From Candidatus Hodarchaeota archaeon (GTDB lineage Archaea; Asgardarchaeota; Heimdallarchaeia; Hodarchaeales; Hodarchaeaceae), in NCBI GenBank assembly GCA_016839815.1, contig JAEOTM010000036.1, forward strand, positions 1-39,235: a stretch of DNA of 39,235 nt. The letters are read 5' to 3'. Made by a program: the position numbers and the translations under genes. Below are positions 1,142 through 37,210 of this stretch, one piece after another. Numbering within the stretch: position 1 is the stretch's first letter; every line of letters begins with the position of its first letter. Below the pieces are notes generated by a model. The model was given only the letters and a program-made list of their open reading frames with translations, had not been told where the DNA came from and ran no database searches.

Positions 1142-4018
1142 TTGAGAACAAACCCCATTCTTCACTCTTTACTTCATATATATTTAGAAATAATCTCTAG
1201 ATCGCTAGATGAGAATCCAATGACCAGTGAATGGAAAGATATTTTTGGATTGATTACCAACATCAGAAATAGGTTACTTGAGTCATGTAGTTTATCTTCT
1301 GGCAAGAAGCTTGAATTTGTGGATCAATTTCTCCTTCAATTAACGGTCTTATGGGTTTTACAAAAACATCGCTTCTTTAATAATGATAAAAATTATTTTA
1401 ATAATATGTTTCAACTAATTGCCCAAAAATCTGCTGGCATTGCTTTCAATACAATCAATGATTTTATGGATTCTTTCCTAACAAGATTAATAGCATTAGA
1501 AGATTTTCAAATCAGTCAGGATTCAGATTTTGGTAGATTGCGAGGGTGTAAATCAGCTATCTTTATCGATCTGGTCTCTATCAAACAGAAAACTGACTTT
1601 CCAAATGATCTGTACTATTTAGATTCTGATAAATCGCACACGTCCAAGACGGAATCTCTGACTGCAGGGATATTCTCTATTCTCGATCGATTTGATAATC
1701 AGATCACTGGTGCATTTTTAGGATCATTATACGAAAAATTGATATCTTCCGAAAAGAAAAGGCAAGGAGGAGTATATTATTCACCTGTTGAACTAACTGG
1801 TTATATCACCCGCTATTCATTACGAGTATATTTAATGGATCAGTTAGGATCAATGGATTACTCTATGTCGGATGATATTTCTATAATCATTAAATCCCTT
1901 GACAAACCTGGAATTTTAAGATTGTATGAAAAATTAAAGGATATTTCAATCTTGGATCCTGCTGTTGGTACTGGACAATTCTTGGAAAGTGCTGCTGATG
2001 AATTGTTATTAGTGTATTCAATGGTAATTAAAAGATTTAAAGAATTACAAGAACCAATGATCTTAAATGATAATATGGATCAATCTGACAATATTATTCA
2101 CAGTGTAGACTATACAAAGGTACAAGATAAAGCAGAAACTCAATTTTATTTACTTAATTTCTTGATTTTTCCAAAATCCTTGTTTGGAATTGATATCGAC
2201 CCTTTCGTGATTCCTTTTACCAAAGCACGATTGTTTATCTATTTAGCACAATATTTTAAGGAAAATATGACACACCATTCCCTAATTCTACCTTTTCAAT
2301 GTAATCTCCAAATTGGAGATGCACTTCTACTTAATTGGAAAGATGCTTTTAAACCAATGTCAACCTCTCACGCCTTTTTTTCGCTCATTCTTACCAATCC
2401 TCCCTATATTGGAGAAAGTAATAATAAGGATATTTTTCGAACATATTCTCTTGCCTTTCCAAGTTACTATGAAGGAAAACTTGACATTTGGTATTTATTT
2501 TTCCATTTAGCAATAAATCAAGTAGTACCAAAAGGTATTGTCTCGTTTCTGACTACAAATTATTGGCTAACTGCTTCGGGAGCTTCTAAATTACGAAATA
2601 GAATATACTCCGAAACCTATATTTTGGAATTTATTGATTTTGGTGAAAATCGCGTATTTCAGGGAGCTCATGGGATTCATTCTAGTGTTATTATTATAAA
2701 AAACCTTAAGGCTCAAAATCCGACAATTAACTGTGTTTCCTATACGAATAAGATTCCTAAAGGAGAACATCTCTTAGATCATATATCCAATCAATTAACT
2801 TTCCAGATTGATCAAAAAGACCTTACTCTGGACAACTGGGATAAATATTTTCACTTTATCCCTCCGGATGTCTCCCATATATTAAGAAAAATTATAGATA
2901 ATTGCTCATCACTAAAGGATTCGACTTACAGTGTGAAAGAGGGGTTAATTACCGGTTTAAATAGAATTAATAAAAGGCAAATTCAGAAATATGGTTATCC
3001 TTCAGCATGGATAAATCGTGGAATATTTATCTTCAATCTAACAAATGAAAATGACTATAACACTCTTGAAACCTTTACTATTGAAGAAAAAAAGTATTTG
3101 AAACCTATTTACAAAAATTCTTCAATTGAACCGTATTCAACGCGGGTTCAAACCCACTTACGCTTATTGTATCTTGTTAAAAGTAATCTAGACCTTTCAA
3201 TCCTTCCTAATATAAAGAAACATCTTGATCACTATCATAAGGCACTTCGTAATTCACTCGATCATCCTCCTTACCTCAATCGTCCCCGAAAACCAGAGAT
3301 CTTTCTTTCTCCCAAACTGGTTACACCCCAAAGATCCCGAACAACGCGATTTGCTTATAATTGCACTGAATGGTTCGCCACACAAGATGTCTATTTCATA
3401 TGTGAAAGAGGAAAATCTAAGCGAAAACTTAAGATCCTTCTTTTATTTTTACAATCTAAGGTTTCTTTTTTCTGGTTTTCATGGATGGGGAAAAAAAAGG
3501 GCTCTCAATTAGAATTTTTTGGAGAATCTATTTCTAATTTTCCTATTCCAAAAGTAGTAGATAATCCGAACCTTTTGGTACGAATAACAGAATATTTAAT
3601 ATTTTTTTATACGCTTGACAAGGTACCAAGAGAGTTCCATCATATCTGGGCTTACTTTGAGGAGAAAATTGCATCTTTAATCACCTATACACATTTTTTC
3701 ACAGATTTGATTCTCTCCAGCAAAAATAAACACCAATCCTACAAAGATATATCGGATAAATTACTCCAAAATCTTAAAGAAATTAATATTGAGAAATTCT
3801 TGACCTTTCGATACTCAATTTTTGCATCATATGATCATGAATCTGCTAATAAAGATGAAAATTCTGATATAATCGAAACTTATCTAAAAATTATCGGGGA
3901 ATCATACAATAGAATCTCTAAAGATAAGCAAATCATGGATTTCTACAATTATGTAAATACTTTTTCGATTGTTAAACAAATTAACAATTTTTATGCATCA
4001 AAAAACCATAAAAAATGA
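1142..4018 (+). CDS. Large gamma-class N6-adenine DNA methyltransferase (Eco57I/TaqI-like, with TaqI_C-type target-recognition region); likely true start ATG 1220
   Basis: LGSLYE..GVYYSP (motif X), ILDPAVGTGQFL (motif I), LFGIDID, LTNPPY (motif IV), WLTASGASKLR, FIDFGENRVF, C-terminal PKLVT..RFAY..QDVYFI..LQSK pattern. No convincing PD-(D/E)xK nuclease domain seen. Confidence 0.85.
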   Translation: MRTNPILHSLLHIYLEIISRSLDENPMTSEWKDIFGLITNIRNRLLESCSLSSGKKLEFVDQFLLQLTVLWVLQKHRFFNNDKNYFNNMFQLIAQKSAGIAFNTINDFMDSFLTRLIALEDFQISQDSDFGRLRGCKSAIFIDLVSIKQKTDFPNDLYYLDSDKSHTSKTESLTAGIFSILDRFDNQITGAFLGSLYEKLISSEKKRQGGVYYSPVELTGYITRYSLRVYLMDQLGSMDYSMSDDISIIIKSLDKPGILRLYEKLKDISILDPAVGTGQFLESAADELLLVYSMVIKRFKELQEPMILNDNMDQSDNIIHSVDYTKVQDKAETQFYLLNFLIFPKSLFGIDIDPFVIPFTKARLFIYLAQYFKENMTHHSLILPFQCNLQIGDALLLNWKDAFKPMSTSHAFFSLILTNPPYIGESNNKDIFRTYSLAFPSYYEGKLDIWYLFFHLAINQVVPKGIVSFLTTNYWLTASGASKLRNRIYSETYILEFIDFGENRVFQGAHGIHSSVIIIKNLKAQNPTINCVSYTNKIPKGEHLLDHISNQLTFQIDQKDLTLDNWDKYFHFIPPDVSHILRKIIDNCSSLKDSTYSVKEGLITGLNRINKRQIQKYGYPSAWINRGIFIFNLTNENDYNTLETFTIEEKKYLKPIYKNSSIEPYSTRVQTHLRLLYLVKSNLDLSILPNIKKHLDHYHKALRNSLDHPPYLNRPRKPEIFLSPKLVTPQRSRTTRFAYNCTEWFATQDVYFICERGKSKRKLKILLLFLQSKVSFFWFSWMGKKKGSQLEFFGESISNFPIPKVVDNPNLLVRITEYLIFFYTLDKVPREFHHIWAYFEEKIASLITYTHFFTDLILSSKNKHQSYKDISDKLLQNLKEINIEKFLTFRYSIFASYDHESANKDENSDIIETYLKIIGESYNRISKDKQIMDFYNYVNTFSIVKQINNFYASKNHKK

Positions 4019-4081: not shown

Positions 4082-5020
4082 TTAGTTGAAATAATAATCT
4101 AATGTTCGTGAATCAGCTTGAGAAAGAGTTTGATTCATTCGATTTCTGATAGTTTTCACATACGATGATTGCTTCAGGATGAAGTCATGATTTTGAGCAG
4201 TAAGAAACATCCAGACATTCCACAGAGCTCGGTTTGTCCATCCTTCAGCTCCTGGTATTTGAAGTGATCTGAAACAATGAAGAAAAGGTGGTTTATAGGT
4301 CTCGAAAATCTTTGGTGTTAACCATTTCCTTGTTTGTGTAGAACGTCGGACTCTAGGAATAGATCTCGACCCTTCTGGAGTATAACAGTCCCCAATAGCT
4401 GCATTTTTTCTCCATCCAATCCAATCTATTGTTTGGAGATAGTCTTTGAATATAACCTGGTGAAATGGACTCCCTAATCCAAACCCATGGAAATTTTGTG
4501 TCGTTAAGGAACGGAATTTGGCTATCCATGCAGCCACATCGTAAACACTTCCCTTTTCATTGATTTTCAAAGAAGGAACCATCCCTCCCAACCCAATGTA
4601 GGGACCAGAGTAATCAGTTAGATTGATATTCGGAAAGTGCACAACTGGCAATACTGGATGATCAATTTTCTTATCCAAAGTAGACCAATTCTGCCATGAT
4701 TTCTTCCTTTTACCAATAACATCCAAATTGATAATAGTATCCCCATCATTCACTCCTACATCCTTAAGAAATGTAATATACTTATTCAAGGGGATATCTA
4801 TTCCAGTTTGATGTGCACTATAAGCACCTGAATCGATCATTATTGGGCCATCGTATGAGAAATAATCATGTAGACCTTGGTCTTTAATTTTCTTACTCCA
4901 CTTTTTAAATTGCCAAAATGAGAATAAAATCCCATATTTACGTTTAAGCATGAACTGATTAATTAAATCTTCATACATCCAAGGAAAAAACCCATTAACG
5001 ATACCCAAGTACAATTTCAA
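4082..5020 (-). CDS. tRNA-guanine transglycosylase (TGT)/DpdA-like TIM-barrel base-exchange protein, paralog 1
   Basis: TGT-family motifs in the expected order: MIDSGAYS, INLDVIG, LPVVH, IGLGGMVP, FHGFGLG, TIDW (nucleophile Asp position), RALWNVW (normally RxxHN). Confidence 0.75.
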   Translation of the reverse strand: MKLYLGIVNGFFPWMYEDLINQFMLKRKYGILFSFWQFKKWSKKIKDQGLHDYFSYDGPIMIDSGAYSAHQTGIDIPLNKYITFLKDVGVNDGDTIINLDVIGKRKKSWQNWSTLDKKIDHPVLPVVHFPNINLTDYSGPYIGLGGMVPSLKINEKGSVYDVAAWIAKFRSLTTQNFHGFGLGSPFHQVIFKDYLQTIDWIGWRKNAAIGDCYTPEGSRSIPRVRRSTQTRKWLTPKIFETYKPPFLHCFRSLQIPGAEGWTNRALWNVWMFLTAQNHDFILKQSSYVKTIRNRMNQTLSQADSRTLDYYFN

Positions 5021-5136: not shown

Positions 5137-5616
5137 ATGTCATCACCGAAAGGTCTTCTCATCATCTCATGTGGGAAGAAAAAGTCCCAAGAACTCAAGC
5201 ATCGTGCGTTAAGGGCGGAGGATGCATATAAAGGTCCTATGTTTCAAGTAATTAATAAAGCAAAAAGGGAAAAGAGGTGGCCTAATAGTCTGAAACTAGG
5301 AATTATCTCAGCTAAATATGGATTCTTACGATCAGATGATGAAATCAACGATTATGATCTATTTATGTCAAAAGGAAGAGCGGAAGAACTTAATGCACAA
5401 GTCATTAGCGGAATTAGAGAATGGCATGAGACAGAAGCATTTTCGATAATCTATGTTCTCACGGGTAAAGACTACTTAAACAGTGTGCACGGACTAGCTG
5501 AATTCATTAATACAGAAGTAAGGATTGAGAATATGGGAGGATTAGGAATTGGCCAGAGAAAACTTGTTGATTTTATCAATTCATTAAGTACTATTGGATT
5601 AGTAAACAGAGGCTAA
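5137..5616 (+). CDS. DUF6884-like (YaaA-related) protein
   Basis: LLIISCGKKK, AEDAYKGPMF, IISAKYGFL, I.DYD..M and LTGKDY match my recollection of the DUF6884 signature (IISCxxxK..A.dlY.g..F..ilSAkyGl..i.pYd). Confidence 0.7.
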   Translation: MSSPKGLLIISCGKKKSQELKHRALRAEDAYKGPMFQVINKAKREKRWPNSLKLGIISAKYGFLRSDDEINDYDLFMSKGRAEELNAQVISGIREWHETEAFSIIYVLTGKDYLNSVHGLAEFINTEVRIENMGGLGIGQRKLVDFINSLSTIGLVNRG

Positions 5617-5622
5617 ATTAAA

Positions 5623-6666
5623 ATGAGTTTTGCGTTGGGAACTCCTATCAGTGCCCGAGTACGACCTTGGCAGTTCGATTGGATTGTAAAACCTGATTTT
5701 CTAATGATTTCTGCGGTTGATTTTATGCAAAATCCAAATCTTTTTGAAACAATAAAGAAATCAGGCATTCATGAATATCTAGAATGGGATGGGCCTCTAG
5801 TTTGTGATTCTGGAGCGTTTTCAGCTCTAAACAGAAAGAAGAAGATGAACCTGAGTCTACAGCAGCTCAAAGTTTTTTATCGTGAACTTTCAAGGCAGGA
5901 TCCTGAAATCATCAAGATAACATTAGACTACCCTGATAAGGATATTTTGTCGAATTACTTAGAATTATTACCTTATGAAATTCAACCGGTCATTCCCCAC
6001 AACCAATTACATCTTTTGGACGAAATTGTATCAGAAGCTGGATTTTCTGACTGGAGTTTTATCGGACGCTTAGTACCTCTTATGAGAGGAGGGAGCGGGT
6101 ATAAAAATCGATTATTTAAGGCTCTAAATAATTTCAAGAGAGAAATGCAGAATTTTTCCTCGTCTGAGATAAGTAAGATATGGGCACTGGGAGTAGGTGC
6201 ACCGAGTATTCTACACGAAGTTCTATCTGCTGTAGATGGATGTGATTCTTCGCGGTGGAGAATTACAGCCTCAAATATGATACTACTTCCTTTCGGGGGA
6301 GAAAGGGGAATTGGGAGTAAGACGAAGTGGAGAGGGACTCATCATCGTATTGAAGAAGGAATGGAAAAGAAATGTGTAATCAATATCCTTAACCAGATTG
6401 ATATCCGCTCGGGAGGATTAGAAACCCTTGATAAGTCATTACAGGTGAATGCTTATCCAAAACAACTTAAAAATAATTTTGAAGTGAACCTACCAAAAAT
6501 TGGAGATTTGATCGGTAAATTACGGAATGCTGACCAAAATGTTTCAGTTTATGAATTAGAATTGCTTTTGAGGAGTTCTGGGAATCTACGCCTTATTTTC
6601 AATTACATATCAGCGTTATATTATAAATTAGACACCTCGTTTAAAAAGCATATTCAGGATAACTAA
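5623..6666 (+). CDS. TGT/DpdA-like TIM-barrel base-exchange protein, paralog 2
   Basis: LVCDSGAFS, ITLDYP, IQPVIP, FIGRLVP, IWALGVG, DGCDSSRW, RLIFNY. Starts 6 bp after the DUF6884-like gene. Confidence 0.72.
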   Translation: MSFALGTPISARVRPWQFDWIVKPDFLMISAVDFMQNPNLFETIKKSGIHEYLEWDGPLVCDSGAFSALNRKKKMNLSLQQLKVFYRELSRQDPEIIKITLDYPDKDILSNYLELLPYEIQPVIPHNQLHLLDEIVSEAGFSDWSFIGRLVPLMRGGSGYKNRLFKALNNFKREMQNFSSSEISKIWALGVGAPSILHEVLSAVDGCDSSRWRITASNMILLPFGGERGIGSKTKWRGTHHRIEEGMEKKCVINILNQIDIRSGGLETLDKSLQVNAYPKQLKNNFEVNLPKIGDLIGKLRNADQNVSVYELELLLRSSGNLRLIFNYISALYYKLDTSFKKHIQDN

Positions 6667-30983: not shown

Positions 30984-31802
30984 TTATTTAATCTGAACCT
31001 CTAACATGCGTTTTTTAAATATTAATCCAAAATGATGATGTACATTAGAAACAAAACTATATGGATACCCGTATGGTCTTAAAGTCTTCTGATTCTGTAG
31101 CCATACTTTTTCTCCTAGAAATTTGTACCATTTATTAAGACGTAGAGGGAGTTCAAAGGCAAGAGGAATCATTTCTCCTTTATCCCTAACATTTTGGATG
31201 AATACAACCAGATGAGCCTCAGATGATAGGAGAGAATGTATATTTGCGAAGATTTTAACTAATTCATGTAAGAAATCCTCTTTATCTTCTATCATTCCTA
31301 AATCTAAAGGATTTTGGCCATATTGGAGATCCAGACCTTTATCTAAGCGCTCTTGCTGATTATAATCTTTTTTTTTCTTTAGGATCCTCCAATACGGAGG
31401 GGATGTAATACAGAGAGAGAATGATTCATTTTTTAATGTGGGTAAGATTTTTCGTAAATCGCCCTCATGAACAGGGAATTTAGTTCTAGATTTTGCCGTT
31501 TTCGCATATTTAGAGTATAGCTCAATTCCCCTCCCTAATCTTCCTGTATTTTCACATGCAACTAATGTCGAACCCGTTCCTAAAAACGGATCTAGAACTT
31601 TTTCACCTGGTTTTGTGAAGAATTTGATGAAATCCTCAATCATAGATGGAGGAAACGACGCAGGATGTAAATCGATCTCATGAGAAATGTCACTTGGCTT
31701 CCCATCAGCGATAAACCATGATTTTGTAAAGCGAATCCATTCTCTCCCCGAGAGAGTGTTAAGTTTATTTCGAGGATCAACATTTTCAGAATCTTTCATC
31801 AA
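30984..31802 (-). CDS. Small DNA methyltransferase, probably N4-cytosine (SPPY; motif I precedes motif IV)
   Basis: LNTLSGREW...TKSW, HPASFP, VLDPFLGTGST, GIEL, ITSPPYW. Confidence 0.85.
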   Translation of the reverse strand: MMKDSENVDPRNKLNTLSGREWIRFTKSWFIADGKPSDISHEIDLHPASFPPSMIEDFIKFFTKPGEKVLDPFLGTGSTLVACENTGRLGRGIELYSKYAKTAKSRTKFPVHEGDLRKILPTLKNESFSLCITSPPYWRILKKKKDYNQQERLDKGLDLQYGQNPLDLGMIEDKEDFLHELVKIFANIHSLLSSEAHLVVFIQNVRDKGEMIPLAFELPLRLNKWYKFLGEKVWLQNQKTLRPYGYPYSFVSNVHHHFGLIFKKRMLEVQIK

Positions 31803-31867
31803 ACTTCAATCTCACAATTCAATTTTCTAAGTTAAAAATATATAATAAAAATTTACGGTGTAAAATT

Positions 31868-32515
31868 ATGGCGAAGTTTCAGTGTATCATTTTTGACGTC
31901 GATGGAACTCTCCTTGATAATACAAATTCAATCATTGCATTATTTCAAGACATCGTTCTAAAATATCTTGGATCAGAGAAAAGTATGACCAAAAAGGAAG
32001 TATTATCCTTATGGGGACCTCCTGGGGATGAAATCTTTAGAAATGTGTTTCCACCTAATATAGTCGATGAAGCATGGACTGAATTTTTATCTAAATATCG
32101 TGAAACTCATACAAAACAAGGTTTTTTTTCTGCTAAAGAAATAGAAGCTTTTCGACAATATGTGGAGTATCTTGCGATATTTACAGGAAAGTCACGTTAT
32201 ACTAATACGATTTCACTAGAAGAACTCAAATTAACTGGTTGTTTTGACCTTATATACACTGGAAGTGATGTAGAAAATTCGAAACCTTATCCTGATGCTC
32301 TTTTTCGAATAATGGAGGATTTAAATCTTCAAAAGGAGGAAGTAATCTTTATCGGTGATAGCCATCTTGATATAATTGCTGGAAAAGCTGCTGGTGTAAC
32401 AACTGCGGGAGCTGAATGGGGTGCGGTTGAATTGGATAAACTTCATAAGAGTAATCCTGATCATACTTTTAAGACTCCAGATGAATTTTTTCAGTTTATC
32501 AAAGGTAGCTTATAA
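31868..32515 (+). CDS. HAD-superfamily phosphatase (Gph/PpaX-like)
   Basis: FDVDGTL, FTGK, KPYPD, IGDS..DI.AGK.AG. Confidence 0.92.
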   Translation: MAKFQCIIFDVDGTLLDNTNSIIALFQDIVLKYLGSEKSMTKKEVLSLWGPPGDEIFRNVFPPNIVDEAWTEFLSKYRETHTKQGFFSAKEIEAFRQYVEYLAIFTGKSRYTNTISLEELKLTGCFDLIYTGSDVENSKPYPDALFRIMEDLNLQKEEVIFIGDSHLDIIAGKAAGVTTAGAEWGAVELDKLHKSNPDHTFKTPDEFFQFIKGSL

Positions 32516-32530
32516 TGTGGTTCTGATTCT

Positions 32531-34675
32531 ATGACGAAAAGGATGATAGAATCGACCTTCCCAATCATTGATGTAAGTCGCCTTGCTATTCCAGAGCGAA
32601 GTAGCTATAAACCCATTTATCAGATATCTAAGTGGTTTGCACGACGATCCTCGTCGATTTTCCGAGCGATTCTTCTTGGCTGTGTTCTTAATCCTTCTGA
32701 CAATCTTATGAAAGAGTTTTTTAAGACAAAGGGGACATTCAAAGAAATTACAGTTCTTGATCCATTTATGGGAGGGGGAACGACTATTATAGAAGCTTTA
32801 AGACTCAATATGAAATGCATCGGAGTAGATATTAATCCTGTTGCTTGGTTTATTACTAAAACTGAAAGTATATTGGTTGATCTATCAGAACTACAAGGAG
32901 TTATTTCAAAGTGTGAAGAAGTTCTGGAAAATAATGTGAAACAGTGGTACAAGACCACCTGTCCAGAATGTATGAACTCTGCTGATATCATCTACACACA
33001 CTGGGTCAAAGTTCTGAATTGCTCAACGTGTAACCGTTCTATTCCAATGTTTCGTAACTTTCTTGTGAGTTATCTTGCTAATGATCCAATACTTCTTTGT
33101 CCCTCATGCTACGCGGTATTTCCTTCATCAAAACCTCTTAATTCTGATATAAATTGTCCTCACTGCAATGAAAAATTTAATCCAAGTATTGGCTATCGAA
33201 TGGGTAGAAAATTTCTTAAATGTCCTGATTGTGGAGATACAACTCATATTTTGTCCACTATCCAGAGAAGTAAGACTCCCCTCTCCAGTAAACCTTTCGC
33301 TATTGAAGGATTTTGTCCTCACTGCTCAATTGAGAATAGAAAGGATACCCAAATTTCCAAATCAAACTACAAATTTATCAAAAAGTTTTCAAAAAAAGAT
33401 TATGAACTCTATAATGAAGCTGAAGAGTATTGGAAAAATCATTCTAATAAATATCTCTGGCCAAAAGAAGATATCCCGATTGGTATTGCTACGAAAGTTC
33501 TTATAAATCATAATTACACAAAATGGTCTGATTTGTTTACTTCTCGTCAACTTTTAGCGTTAAGTCTTATTCTAACTCATATCGATGAGATTGATAATGA
33601 AATTCTACAAGAAATGCTCTTAGCAGCATTTCTTAACCTTTTGAATCATAACAATTGCTTCACACGCTATTCGCCCAAAGGACAGAAGGTAGAAGGGATA
33701 TTTTCTCGTCATGATTTTCATCCATTATCTACATACACTGAAAATAATGTTTGGGGAACAAGATATGGTAGAGGGACATGGATTAAATGTCTTAATAGAT
33801 TATTGAAAGGGAAACAATACAATCTCACCCCCTATAATTTTGAGTATTACATGAGTAAAGAGAAGATCGCTAAGCATCGTAAAGTTATAACTGGAAAAAT
33901 TGATGGAGTCGTGTTCAAAGGGGATATCAAGGATTTTCCTGATGATAGTAGTAATTTACTCCTGTTATGTCGTGATTCGGAGCATATTCCCTTGGTTAAA
34001 AATACAGTTGACCTATTAATCTCCGATCCTCCATATTCAGATAACGTAAATTATTCAGAATTATCTGATTTCCTATATGTTTGGATTCGCATAATACTTA
34101 GCAAGAGATATTCAATTTTCGAGTTTGTTGAGACTCCTAAACGTGAAGAGGCTATAGAAACAAAAAATCGAGAGACTGACTACTATACAAAGTTAGCAAA
34201 TATTTTCTCAAATTGTAAAATGCATCTTAAACCTGAAGGATTATTTGTTTTTACTTTTCATCATGCAAATCCTGATACGTGGTTAAAACTCGCTGATTTG
34301 CTTGAGAATTCAGGTTTTTATACAGTTAAGACTCATGCTTTGCAGAGTGAAGCTTTGAATGTATTGAATATTCAGAACAAGAAAGCTATTTCTTATGACT
34401 TGATCATCGTTTGTAGAAAGAAAGTTAAGGAAGATAAAGAAGCGCTTCCTTTGTCAGAATTTATGAGATGTCTAGAAGAAAATTTCAATAAAAAGATTAC
34501 ATATTATTCTAAGATCGGACTTTCGATACAAGCAACAAATAGGATTGTTGTTTTTTTTGGGGAATATTTTGAACTAATATCAAAAGTACAACCAGTCAGA
34601 AGGTCAATTCCCATGTCAAAACTCGAAATATGGAAAAGTTGTAAAGACCTTCTTTCCTCTCGAATACTTACCTGA
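32531..34675 (+). CDS. DUF1156/COG1743-type adenine-specific DNA methyltransferase with Zn-ribbon insertion
   Basis: KWFARRSSSIFRAILL, VLDPFMGGGT, GVDINPVA, six CxxC pairs, LFTSRQL, ISDPPYSDNVNYSELSDF.YVW, FTFHH. Confidence 0.88.
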   Translation: MTKRMIESTFPIIDVSRLAIPERSSYKPIYQISKWFARRSSSIFRAILLGCVLNPSDNLMKEFFKTKGTFKEITVLDPFMGGGTTIIEALRLNMKCIGVDINPVAWFITKTESILVDLSELQGVISKCEEVLENNVKQWYKTTCPECMNSADIIYTHWVKVLNCSTCNRSIPMFRNFLVSYLANDPILLCPSCYAVFPSSKPLNSDINCPHCNEKFNPSIGYRMGRKFLKCPDCGDTTHILSTIQRSKTPLSSKPFAIEGFCPHCSIENRKDTQISKSNYKFIKKFSKKDYELYNEAEEYWKNHSNKYLWPKEDIPIGIATKVLINHNYTKWSDLFTSRQLLALSLILTHIDEIDNEILQEMLLAAFLNLLNHNNCFTRYSPKGQKVEGIFSRHDFHPLSTYTENNVWGTRYGRGTWIKCLNRLLKGKQYNLTPYNFEYYMSKEKIAKHRKVITGKIDGVVFKGDIKDFPDDSSNLLLLCRDSEHIPLVKNTVDLLISDPPYSDNVNYSELSDFLYVWIRIILSKRYSIFEFVETPKREEAIETKNRETDYYTKLANIFSNCKMHLKPEGLFVFTFHHANPDTWLKLADLLENSGFYTVKTHALQSEALNVLNIQNKKAISYDLIIVCRKKVKEDKEALPLSEFMRCLEENFNKKITYYSKIGLSIQATNRIVVFFGEYFELISKVQPVRRSIPMSKLEIWKSCKDLLSSRILT

Positions 34676-34681
34676 TTTTGA

Positions 34682-35458
34682 GTGTATAGCATGAAATCCG
34701 AATCGAAATACAAGTTAGTTATAGGAGATGTTAATGAAACATTGCCAGCTATAGCTAAGGATCGATTCTTTGATTTAATAATTGCCGATCCTCCATTTGG
34801 GATTTCTTTTAGTAAATCCTCACACGAATATGGAGCTGATGACTATCACTTGTATAATGATGATTTTACACCTGATTCATATTATGAATTCTCTAAAAAG
34901 TGGGTTCAAAATAGTTACAATGCTCTTAATCCCAACGGCAGTCTTTATATTATCTCTGGATGGACAAATCTTCAGTATATTCTAAATGCACTCGAAACTA
35001 CTGATTTTCACACGTTAAATCATGCAATCTGGCATTTTTCCTGGGGAGTGTACACTAAACGTCGTTTTGTTACGAGCCATTATCATATCTTGTTGTTAGT
35101 AAAAAACCGTAAAAAATATCAGTTCGTAAAACAGAAACATTACGATGAAGATGTCTTTTTTTGGAAGGAATATAATAGAGGGAATGATCCACATCGAATC
35201 AAAGGACACCCCTGTCAGCTTCCTATTGTCCTTCTTGAAAAGCTAATTCTTACATCGAGTTCTGCAGGTGATCTAGTTGGAGATGTATTTTCTGGCTCTG
35301 GAGGAACAATATTAGCTGCACGCAGGACTGGAAGAGATGTTATTGGGTTTGAATTGAGAGAAGAATACAAAAAAATTATCGAAGAGAAAGCTCTGTTTGG
35401 TAAGTCCCTAATTAAGGAGTTTCAGAATACAACACTAGATAAATTTCTAGATAAATAA
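34682..35458 (+). CDS. Beta-class amino (N6A/N4C) DNA methyltransferase; likely start ATG 34691
   Basis: DLIIADPPF, L.PNGSLYI, HPCQLP..LLEKLI, DVFSGSG, GFEL. Confidence 0.9.
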   Translation: MYSMKSESKYKLVIGDVNETLPAIAKDRFFDLIIADPPFGISFSKSSHEYGADDYHLYNDDFTPDSYYEFSKKWVQNSYNALNPNGSLYIISGWTNLQYILNALETTDFHTLNHAIWHFSWGVYTKRRFVTSHYHILLLVKNRKKYQFVKQKHYDEDVFFWKEYNRGNDPHRIKGHPCQLPIVLLEKLILTSSSAGDLVGDVFSGSGGTILAARRTGRDVIGFELREEYKKIIEEKALFGKSLIKEFQNTTLDKFLDK

Positions 35459-35491
35459 CCATTTCTTACTCCTTTCTCAGAATGGAGTGTG

Positions 35492-37210
35492 CTAAAGAAA
35501 ACTTTCATAAGAAGAGCATTTGTATAAATTGATTATTTTTTTCTCAATCTTCTCTCTTACTACAGGTAGCATGGGAGAGGAAAGAAAAAGCTGTTCGATT
35601 GACTTTATATGATCTTCATTCTTTTCTGGAGGCTTGATTGGTAAACGTTTCAAGTTTTTAATTGAAATAGCATTAGTATATCTAGATCCAAGGTTAAATT
35701 GATTTTCATAATACCAGTTCATAAGACGAGAATTTAGTATAGCTAATATATAATAAAGGAAACTGGGATTTTGTTGCCATTGTTTTTTTAAACGAATATT
35801 ATAAACATTCTGGGTAGTAAAAGCATTTTTTAAGTCAATTGCACCGCAAGGAGACTGCTTTATCTTCTGTAAGACGATTTTAGGAGATTTGTATATGTCT
35901 TTATTTTTCTTGGATTTAAATTTAATCGAATCATTGAAATAATGACATGATTTAATATCATATTGATCAAAATCATCACCTGTAAGAATGGGAATAGTGT
36001 GCTGTGATGATTTTATAGGACTTATCAAGAAATTTGTTTGTAAGTGATCTTTATATAGAATTTTATGACATTGAGAACATTCAATATTGGGCTTACGACT
36101 GGATAATGGTACCCACATACCACATGAAATACAATACATAACCCCTCCTTTTTTACTCAGTTCTTCACCACGTTGAATCGTAACATATTCTTCTAATGAC
36201 ATTGTATCTTTTTTAATAAGTTTTAATAACTGTAAAAGTGTATTATCAGAGATTTTTGTGAATATATAATCAGTATTAGTCATATAAACATTTTGATGGA
36301 TTTTTATCTTCTCGTTAATCAGAATTTCATTGCTTAATTCTTTCATATCGATACGATGAGCAACTAAGGAAATAAATTCCTGAGTAACTTCATTGAATAG
36401 ATCATGAAAGATCAATGTTTTTATGTGAAAGTTATTAAGAATGAACTTCCGTAGATTTACATATTGATTTGAACGTGAAAGGTTCTTAGGAAGATATAAC
36501 GCTAAGTACCCAGCATTTGGTTTTAACATATTAGTACTTTGATATATAAATAGTTCAAATGAATTCAAATTTCGTTTTGAACCTGATAAATTAAATTTTC
36601 TGTAATAACGAATTCGTTCTGCTTTACTAAGATGGCTTCCCCAGGGAGGGTTCCCAATTATCAAATCAAATCCCTTAAATCTCTTAGGGATCGTTTTCCA
36701 AGAACTGAAATCGCTTTCTAAAAAATTTCCTTCTCTAATATTGCCCTCCAACCATGCTGATACTGTATTTTTGTCAATCTCCCGAATATTTTCATTCAAA
36801 ATTTTGTGACATGCTCTTAATGTCGCAATATCTAATTCCATTCCAAATAAATTTTGTAATATCACCTTTTTAGGTAAGATTGAGGATTTCATGTTTAATT
36901 CATGTAGTCGCTTTGATATAGAGTTAAAAATGTGACACAGAGCATAATATGAGGTAAGAATGAATTCTCCTTGTCCAACAGATCCATCCAATATTGTCAG
37001 ATTTGAAATATAAGATTGAATTGCTCTTAAAATTTCGATATTGTCGGACATAAGGAGAGCTTTTAGAGATAAAGATGCATCATAACAACGACGGACTTGT
37101 GTTTTGATTACCTGTTCTAGGACACGATTTGTTAGTTCTGATGCTAGTTCAGTCGGAGTATAGAATGCTCCATAGAGTTTTTTGAATGTATTTTTCTCTA
37201 TAGGAGACAA
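35492..37210 (-). CDS. Gamma-class N6-adenine DNA methyltransferase (TaqI/Eco57I-like) with a Zn-finger insertion in the specificity region
   Basis: GAFYTP, ILDGSVGQGEF, LFGMELD, IIGNPPW, PKIVLQKI, YILAILNSRLM.WYY, LKRLPI; CISC-x14-CSQC. Confidence 0.87.
   Translation of the reverse strand: MSPIEKNTFKKLYGAFYTPTELASELTNRVLEQVIKTQVRRCYDASLSLKALLMSDNIEILRAIQSYISNLTILDGSVGQGEFILTSYYALCHIFNSISKRLHELNMKSSILPKKVILQNLFGMELDIATLRACHKILNENIREIDKNTVSAWLEGNIREGNFLESDFSSWKTIPKRFKGFDLIIGNPPWGSHLSKAERIRYYRKFNLSGSKRNLNSFELFIYQSTNMLKPNAGYLALYLPKNLSRSNQYVNLRKFILNNFHIKTLIFHDLFNEVTQEFISLVAHRIDMKELSNEILINEKIKIHQNVYMTNTDYIFTKISDNTLLQLLKLIKKDTMSLEEYVTIQRGEELSKKGGVMYCISCGMWVPLSSRKPNIECSQCHKILYKDHLQTNFLISPIKSSQHTIPILTGDDFDQYDIKSCHYFNDSIKFKSKKNKDIYKSPKIVLQKIKQSPCGAIDLKNAFTTQNVYNIRLKKQWQQNPSFLYYILAILNSRLMNWYYENQFNLGSRYTNAISIKNLKRLPIKPPEKNEDHIKSIEQLFLSSPMLPVVREKIEKKIINLYKCSSYESFL

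Follow-up and report, generated by a model that had tools for sequence, protein, structure and literature searches.

Within the window, by which we mean the complete stretch of 39,235 nucleotides of Candidatus Hodarchaeota archaeon that was analyzed, a gene on the reverse strand encodes a TGT-fold protein (TGT1) that terminates in a peptide resembling a PIP box. On the basis of this tail, the original prediction proposed that the enzyme acts on DNA and is coupled to PCNA. The locus raises the question what TGT1 modifies, and whether its tail is a ligand of the sliding clamp. The explanation that we favor, with a probability of about 0.6, is that TGT1 is a chromosomal and vertically inherited DpdA1-like enzyme for DNA base exchange that carries a real but optional PCNA-binding peptide.

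Identity of the enzyme

The gene and its active site residues are located as follows.

4082-5020 (-): TGT1, DpdA1-like TGT-fold transglycosylase of 312 amino acids, no Zn site, no PUA domain
4832-4834 (-): Asp63, general acid/base (DpdA Asp95), invariant
4721-4723 (-): Asp100, base recognition (DpdA Asp130), invariant
4637-4639 (-): His128, base-recognition His of the DpdA type (DpdA His181; Gln in tRNA TGTs), invariant
4424-4426 (-): Asp199, nucleophile (DpdA Asp256), invariant and followed by an unusual, invariant Trp200

Residues D63, D100, H128, G145-G146 and D199 are invariant over 42 rows, align with CAjan DpdA1, and match D95, D130, H181, G206-G207 and D256 of DpdA (PMC10164549). The Trp after the nucleophile is absent from the characterised DpdAs that were compared. 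A fold comparison gave arcTGT as the best match of TGT1 (Z 24.6, E 2e-9), followed by Salmonella DpdA (Z 20.5) and Cap10 (Z 17.8). Taken alone, the fold search suggested derivation from arcTGT; this reading was dropped on account of the profile comparison, the His of the DpdA type and the tree. Profile scores of TGT1 are 66 bits with STSV1 DpdA, 54-60 bits with phage DpdA1 and 27-30 bits with arcTGT. Similarly, PHROG 887 is matched with an E value of 1e-20 as compared to 3e-7 for TIGR00432, for which the score is 29 bits against a cut-off of 350. The phage matches sit beside queCDE/folE. TGT1 has no match to Pfam PF23859, and CAjan DpdA1 is likewise missed by Pfam. In a tree of 44 rows TGT1 groups with DpdA1 and apart from arcTGT with a split of 99/93, to be read with the long branches and the selection of rows in mind; it is sister to the clade containing DpdA1 rather than within it, again with long branches.

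Like the DpdA1 proteins of phages of the CAjan, Seurat and 9g type (PMC6884629, PMC7544227) and the DpdA of Sulfolobus viruses STSV1/2, TGT1 is a stand-alone TGT barrel of ca. 300 amino acids with an Asp/Asp/His/Asp site and without the Zn tetrad, PUA domain or DpdB; the identity is 23-30% over 53-75% of the length. Unlike these viral proteins, TGT1 is chromosomal, single-copy and syntenic across the genus. Its locus lacks the queCDE/folE cluster that accompanies phage DpdA1, the nucleophile is followed by Trp, and the partners are DUF6884, TGT2 and methyltransferases. With arcTGT (PDB 1iq8) the protein shares the DSG motif and three Asp residues besides the fold, whereas a conserved CxCxxC..H Zn motif and the C1/C2/PUA tRNA-binding domains were not found in TGT1, and His takes the place of Gln. 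The genome harbors a separate full-length arcTGT (646-aa frame) and an ArcS-domain gene. A 375-aa stand-alone TGT-family frame (L195) that is separate from the arcTGT-sized gene was also seen in another Asgard family (G142).

Homologs with 42-46% identity are located on contigs that are virus-like by gene content and carry DNA methyltransferases, ribonucleotide reductase, integrase or an RFC-like ATPase. A scan of IMG/VR returned no viral members. As judged from these comparisons, TGT1 would work like phage DpdA1; it is not an arcTGT and does not belong to a bacterial Dpd system. Its substrate is very probably DNA, as the original prediction held, although the support comes mainly from evidence besides the tail, namely the DpdA-type site, the lack of a Zn site and PUA domain, the grouping with DpdA1, the virus-like homologs and the stable neighborhood of a DpdC-like gene and DNA methyltransferases.

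Gene neighborhood and 7-deazaguanine supply

The genes that surround TGT1 are listed below.

5137-5616 (+): DUF6884 protein (YaaA/DpdC-like), PIP-like tail in many other species, none here
5623-6666 (+): TGT2, second TGT-fold protein, PIP-like tail in some other species, none here
6698-9106 (+): N6/N4 DNA methyltransferase, 3' of TGT2 in 19 of 21 loci
1142-4018 (+): DNA methyltransferase of the Eco57I/IIG type, convergent to TGT1, found at 9 of 21 loci; at 7 loci TGT1 adjoins another methyltransferase family

TGT1 is present in 19 of the 24 genomes of the order; a search of 277 further genomes from the phylum found it in none. Neighbors of TGT1 include methyltransferases, UPF0047 and TFB. Since DUF6884 and TGT2 occur at all 21 loci, the methyltransferase follows in 19 of these and the block adjoins TFB, the locus is a fixed chromosomal module and not a sporadic island. 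In this respect it differs from bacterial DpdA/DpdB/DpdC systems such as that of Salmonella Montevideo (PDB 7ui4, PMC10164549), with which TGT1 shares the fold, the catalytic residues and a DpdC/YaaA-like neighbor. Also unlike the Salmonella system, TGT1 lacks the Zn site and the large insertion, and DpdB (DndB/ParB-like ATPase, PF14072) was found in none of the 24 genomes, 5 of which are at least 90% complete. DpdD-K gave no PADLOC match among 8 locus proteins. The DUF6884 protein is YaaA-related and shows partial, weak matches to DpdC (PADLOC, E 4e-6, half length); one family member, YfjM, turned up among proteins that bind abasic and RNA-base lesions (PMC11701544).

The QueC cut-off is reached in only one of the 24 genomes. 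De novo supply of preQ0 was rejected for the present genome, in which the QueC matches are other PP-loop enzymes. The preQ0 importer YhhQ is encoded in 20 of the 22 genomes of the genus. The genus (G000-G021) keeps arcTGT, here together with ArcS, as well as YhhQ, and QueC was not found in it; archaeosine is likely formed via preQ0 salvage, as the gene content suggests.

The module shows some variation. In 9 genomes TGT1 and DUF6884 have a DUF362 gene between them, and in 8 an MFS transporter comes after TGT2 (L094-L099, L102, L111 and L113). The TGT2 frame of G008 spans 574 amino acids and may be fused, or joined by a frameshift, to the transporter. In G013 and G014 (L108, L109) an ORF of ca. 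2980 amino acids, along with three further genes, is inserted between TGT1 and DUF6884-TGT2. A weak profilin match (E 0.007) at 688-1056 of the window is syntenic with the module in several genomes.

The C-terminal motif

Two segments make up the tail of TGT1.

4082-4111 (-): Gln-less PIP-like box S304-N312 and stop, pocket residues L307, Y310 and F311
4112-4135 (-): variable linker from the last helix to the motif, residues 296-303, defined by column frequencies and low pLDDT

The protein ends in SRTLDYYFN followed by a TAA stop, exactly spanning 4082-4111 (-), which confirms a PIP-like motif at the extreme C-terminus; the longer tail quoted earlier, from Gln301, reaches 4120. In the PIP register S304 is position 1, L307 is position 4, and Y310 and F311 are positions 7 and 8. 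Of the canonical features, the Leu/Ile/Met at position 4 and the aromatic residues at positions 7 and 8 are present, but position 1 is Ser304 where a canonical box has Gln; the motif is likely a Gln-less PIP box. It had been described as an imperfect match in which the canonical Gln is replaced by Ser, and a replacement was not borne out. Position 1 is Gln in none of the 20 homolog tails, and in the six nearest it is Ile or Leu. Across the order, Gln is found at this position in only 1 of 17 scored RNase HII tails and in 0 of 17 tails of the AP-endonuclease-like protein. Gln-less boxes are usual in this genome as well (RNase HII, RFC-large, NucS), and Gln is lacking in 34% of confirmed PCNA motifs (PMC6881253). 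Because Gln-less tails are this common in the partners of the order and in confirmed motifs, the missing Gln is no objection to PCNA binding.

The 14 residues upstream of the motif have a net charge of +1, a non-acidic flank as found in broad-sense PIP boxes. The fold model of TGT1 is confident up to about residue 300 and poor after that: pLDDT drops to 51 and 45 over the final two blocks, as compared to 89.9 overall. This low C-terminal pLDDT suggests that the tail is probably flexible and exposed. The tail resembles the C-terminal PIP boxes of archaeal Fen1, RNase HII, RFC-large, NucS and PolB in being a terminal, flexible hydrophobic-x-x-aromatic-aromatic peptide that occupies the same PCNA pocket when modeled. 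It differs from these in its presence on a base-exchange enzyme and in only ca. 40% of the homologs, and it is Gln-less, as in most partners in the genus.

The bare core (hydrophobic-x-x-aromatic-aromatic) is present within the C-terminal 10 residues in 2.1% of the 3405 ORFs of the genome versus 1.5% of internal windows, and is weak evidence by itself. A mechanical filter that combines a terminal motif with a polar stretch upstream was run over the same ORFs and gave 21 matches where 8.2 were expected; about 8 of the 21 are attributable to chance. The 20 matches other than TGT1 comprise nine from DNA-acting or probably DNA-acting families (Fen1, RNase HII, RFC-large, NucS, a Hef-like helicase, SRAP, a Rad51-like protein, DUF72 and an AP-endonuclease-2 family protein), three non-DNA proteins (deacetylase, Fe-ADH, GNAT), three without family and five that were not family-scanned. 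Position-1 Gln is absent from six of the nine DNA-acting matches. The statistics exclude patterns like [ST]L[DE]x-aromatic-aromatic, which were picked after the motif had been seen.

The AP-endonuclease-2 family protein is a TIM barrel (L006, G000:C168:60170-61123; also L136-L155) with a Pro-G-x-L-D-Y/F-Y-F tail in 17 of 19 genomes that closely resembles the tail of TGT1. An L-x-x-F-F core is also carried by the C-terminus of the DNA methyltransferase L021.

Conservation of the tail

Homologs of TGT1 come from Hodarchaeales/Heimdallarchaeota. The seven nearest (66-69% identity) all possess the motif, in the form R-x-[LF]-x-Y-Y-F-N. Among these the majority frequency is 0.86 in the motif versus 0.49 in the linker (columns 296-304), and the motif is apparently under selection in this clade. 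Among near-full-length homologs as a whole, the tail was found in only 20 of 49 and is missing in 29. The tail-less proteins include a sister clade of nine members and another clade of six, both of which stop straight after the last helix, and related cores reappear in several separate branches. On the conservation check named in the original prediction, the outcome is thus split between the nearest clade (7 of 7) and the family (20 of 49). Since entire clades lack the tail and only 20 of 49 homologs keep it, clamp docking appears to be optional.

Counted by genome, the TGT1 tail fits a relaxed pattern in 9 of 18 cases and a strict one in 5. The same relaxed pattern is far better kept in RNase HII (18 of 22) and in the AP-endonuclease-like protein (18 of 19). 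A deacetylase that was chosen as negative control has a similar tail core, L-x-x-Y/F-W, in 23 of 23 genomes. Conservation of such a core may thus have nothing to do with DNA, and is by itself no proof of clamp binding. This histone-deacetylase-family protein (L009, G000:C149:17114-18157; also L156-L178) may carry the terminal core either as a structural helix or as an unexpected PCNA client.

The DUF6884 and TGT2 proteins of other species often bear PIP-like tails. A Gln-type box is frequent at the end of DUF6884 in the sister clade whose TGT1 has no tail, which first suggested strict complementarity with always exactly one tailed subunit. This was ruled out: some genomes have three tails, and in G001, G003 and G012 a PIP-like tail was found on none of TGT1, DUF6884 and TGT2. 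One of three tail-less loci that were checked had no tail on the partners either.

Model of the complex with PCNA

The genome has a single PCNA match (G000:C206, L001:1486-2349), which bears an acidic C-terminal extension of ca. 30 residues. A model of TGT1 residues 281-312 with this cognate PCNA gave an ipSAE of 0.79, whereas the best of three controls reached 0.03. The ipSAE mark is attained by 58 of 80 solved versus 2 of 110 mismatched pairs, counts that apply roughly to the present model, for which own alignments were used. The runs have at least 50% of contacts in common and the partner pLDDT is at least 53. Low-error contacts are restricted to TGT1 residues 304-311, with L307 surrounded by PCNA residues 45, 49-52, 235, 251 and 253, and Y310/F311 close to residues 130-135 and 234-235. 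These PCNA residues together form what we take to be the PIP pocket. The suggested modeling of a peptide-PCNA complex thus placed the tail where a PIP box would be expected, although the result may reflect memory because PCNA-PIP complexes have been widely solved. What the model predicts is a likeness to PIP docking, not binding.

Clamp-type tails in the wider family

The C-termini of four phage DpdA1 proteins (L186:3824-4744, L188:2863-3786, L189:2821-3744, L190:2863-3783) read ELF or GLF, and three of them have Gln at the beta-clamp position. TGT1 shares with these proteins a C-terminal clamp-type peptide, which is of the PCNA type in TGT1 and of the beta-clamp type in the phages. In CAjan, Me-ZS1 and PSASB_03, the genes for the phage clamp and the DNA polymerase come immediately after that for DpdA1. 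Among 146 distant relatives, which are not phylogenetically independent, Q..LF ends occur 10 times (0.11 expected) and LF ends 27 times (1.5 expected). A near-terminal [NDS][VI]xxLF[KR] motif is common to a helicase, two N6/N4 methyltransferases, the TGT1 homolog and two small ORFs on one virus-like contig (L182:579-9731), and is probably a clamp-binding variant. In a literature search that left most subscription papers outside its reach, no paper was found on beta-clamp-type ends of DpdA1, on DpdA with clamp or PCNA, or on DNA modification in Hodarchaeales.

Alternative explanations

If TGT1 acts on DNA, its tail could still pack as a short amphipathic helix against the enzyme itself or a partner (TGT2, DUF6884 or the methyltransferase) instead of binding PCNA. 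The loss of the tail from over half of the homologs, the conserved look-alike on the deacetylase and the slight terminal enrichment of the bare core all fit such a role, and the controls of the complex model did not include a scrambled tail. We nevertheless consider it unlikely, since the tail is not packed in the monomer model and has low confidence there, unrelated proteins in the module have tails of a similar kind, relatives of DpdA1 have clamp motifs, and the modeled contacts are those of the canonical pocket. PCNA coupling via the tail is in our view quite probable, going by the model score of 0.79, the motif enrichment, the DNA-acting company, the retention in the nearest clade and the DpdA1 clamp motifs. 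The original prediction is qualified in that docking would be optional and in that binding itself is a modeled property.

A PCNA-tethered enzyme might also remove bases rather than write them. TGT1 would then be a glycosylase that targets a purine which is damaged or foreign, such as 7-deazaguanine in the DNA of viruses. It would either restore guanine by exchange or leave an abasic site, and DUF6884 would take care of the lesion; such removal could also feed preQ0 salvage. Glycosylases against deazaguanine exist (10.1101/2025.10.29.685425), the DUF6884 member YfjM is a lesion binder (PMC11701544), the tail is like those of repair enzymes of the genome, Trp200 is unusual, and QueC was not found in the genus. 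Against this stand the intact set of exchange residues, the occurrence of YhhQ in the genus together with the proposal of salvage-dependent DpdA phages (PMC6884629), and the position of virus-like-contig homologs among DNA methyltransferases, which fits writers; we regard an eraser as decidedly unlikely. Still less probable is a TGT paralog that modifies RNA or protein, at a second tRNA site or by Cap10-like deazaguanylation, with a coincidental tail. The fold matches to arcTGT and Cap10 are in line with it, and TGT folds have been redirected to proteins elsewhere (10.1101/2025.04.06.647259), but TGT1 lacks the Zn site and C1/C2/PUA domains, has His where TGTs have Gln, groups with DpdA1 and is flanked by DNA methyltransferases. 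Moreover, no QueC-like Cap9 partner was found at the locus, and arcTGT is encoded separately.

Proposed mechanism and implications

The computation yields an intact DpdA-type active site, a flexible terminal motif and a fit of L307, Y310 and F311 in the PIP pocket. In the favored reading, of a DpdA1-like writer with an optional PCNA-binding peptide, PCNA at forks or repair sites would recruit TGT1. Asp199 would attack C1' of a flipped guanine, giving a covalent intermediate, after which guanine would be exchanged for a 7-deazaguanine. This would most likely be preQ0 imported by YhhQ, as QueC was not found. Conversion or protection of the product may subsequently fall to the DpdC-like DUF6884 protein. 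Docking on the clamp would increase the local concentration of TGT1 on open DNA, perhaps substituting for the DpdB ATPase, which was not found. That 7-deazaguanine is the inserted base we consider marginally favored. The original prediction further restricted the action to newly replicated DNA, for which we put the chances somewhat below even. PCNA is loaded at repair sites as well as during replication, so docking on PCNA does not separate newly replicated from repaired DNA.

Insertion by DpdA has been described as post-replicative, and no published link between DpdA and the replisome was found in the literature search. If DpdA1-type enzymes bind the clamp through a tail, this would account for their access to DNA without DpdB and for the high modification levels that they reach. 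The eukaryotic DNMT1 is recruited to PCNA through a PIP box. It resembles TGT1 in being a DNA-marking enzyme with such a box; enzyme and chemistry are unrelated, which makes this an analogy only, and one that does not extend to a maintenance preference for hemi-modified DNA. In an extended form, which we regard as somewhat unlikely, Hodarchaeales would stably write 7-deazaguanine or another exchanged-base mark in their own chromosome via a virus-derived, PCNA-riding set without restriction partner. The mark would be replication-coupled and possibly heritable, and the set would exemplify a general rule by which enzymes of the DpdA type are clients of sliding clamps. Hodarchaeales are close archaeal relatives of eukaryotes, and if true, a genus-wide, nuclease-free and clamp-coupled base-exchange module would also indicate a chromosomal mark, so far undescribed, close to where eukaryotes originated.

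The window harbors a second cluster of DNA methyltransferase-like ORFs without evident nuclease at 30984-37210. Within it, the beta-class DNA methyltransferase at 34682-35458 ends in TTLDKFLDK, a second PIP-like tail in the window.
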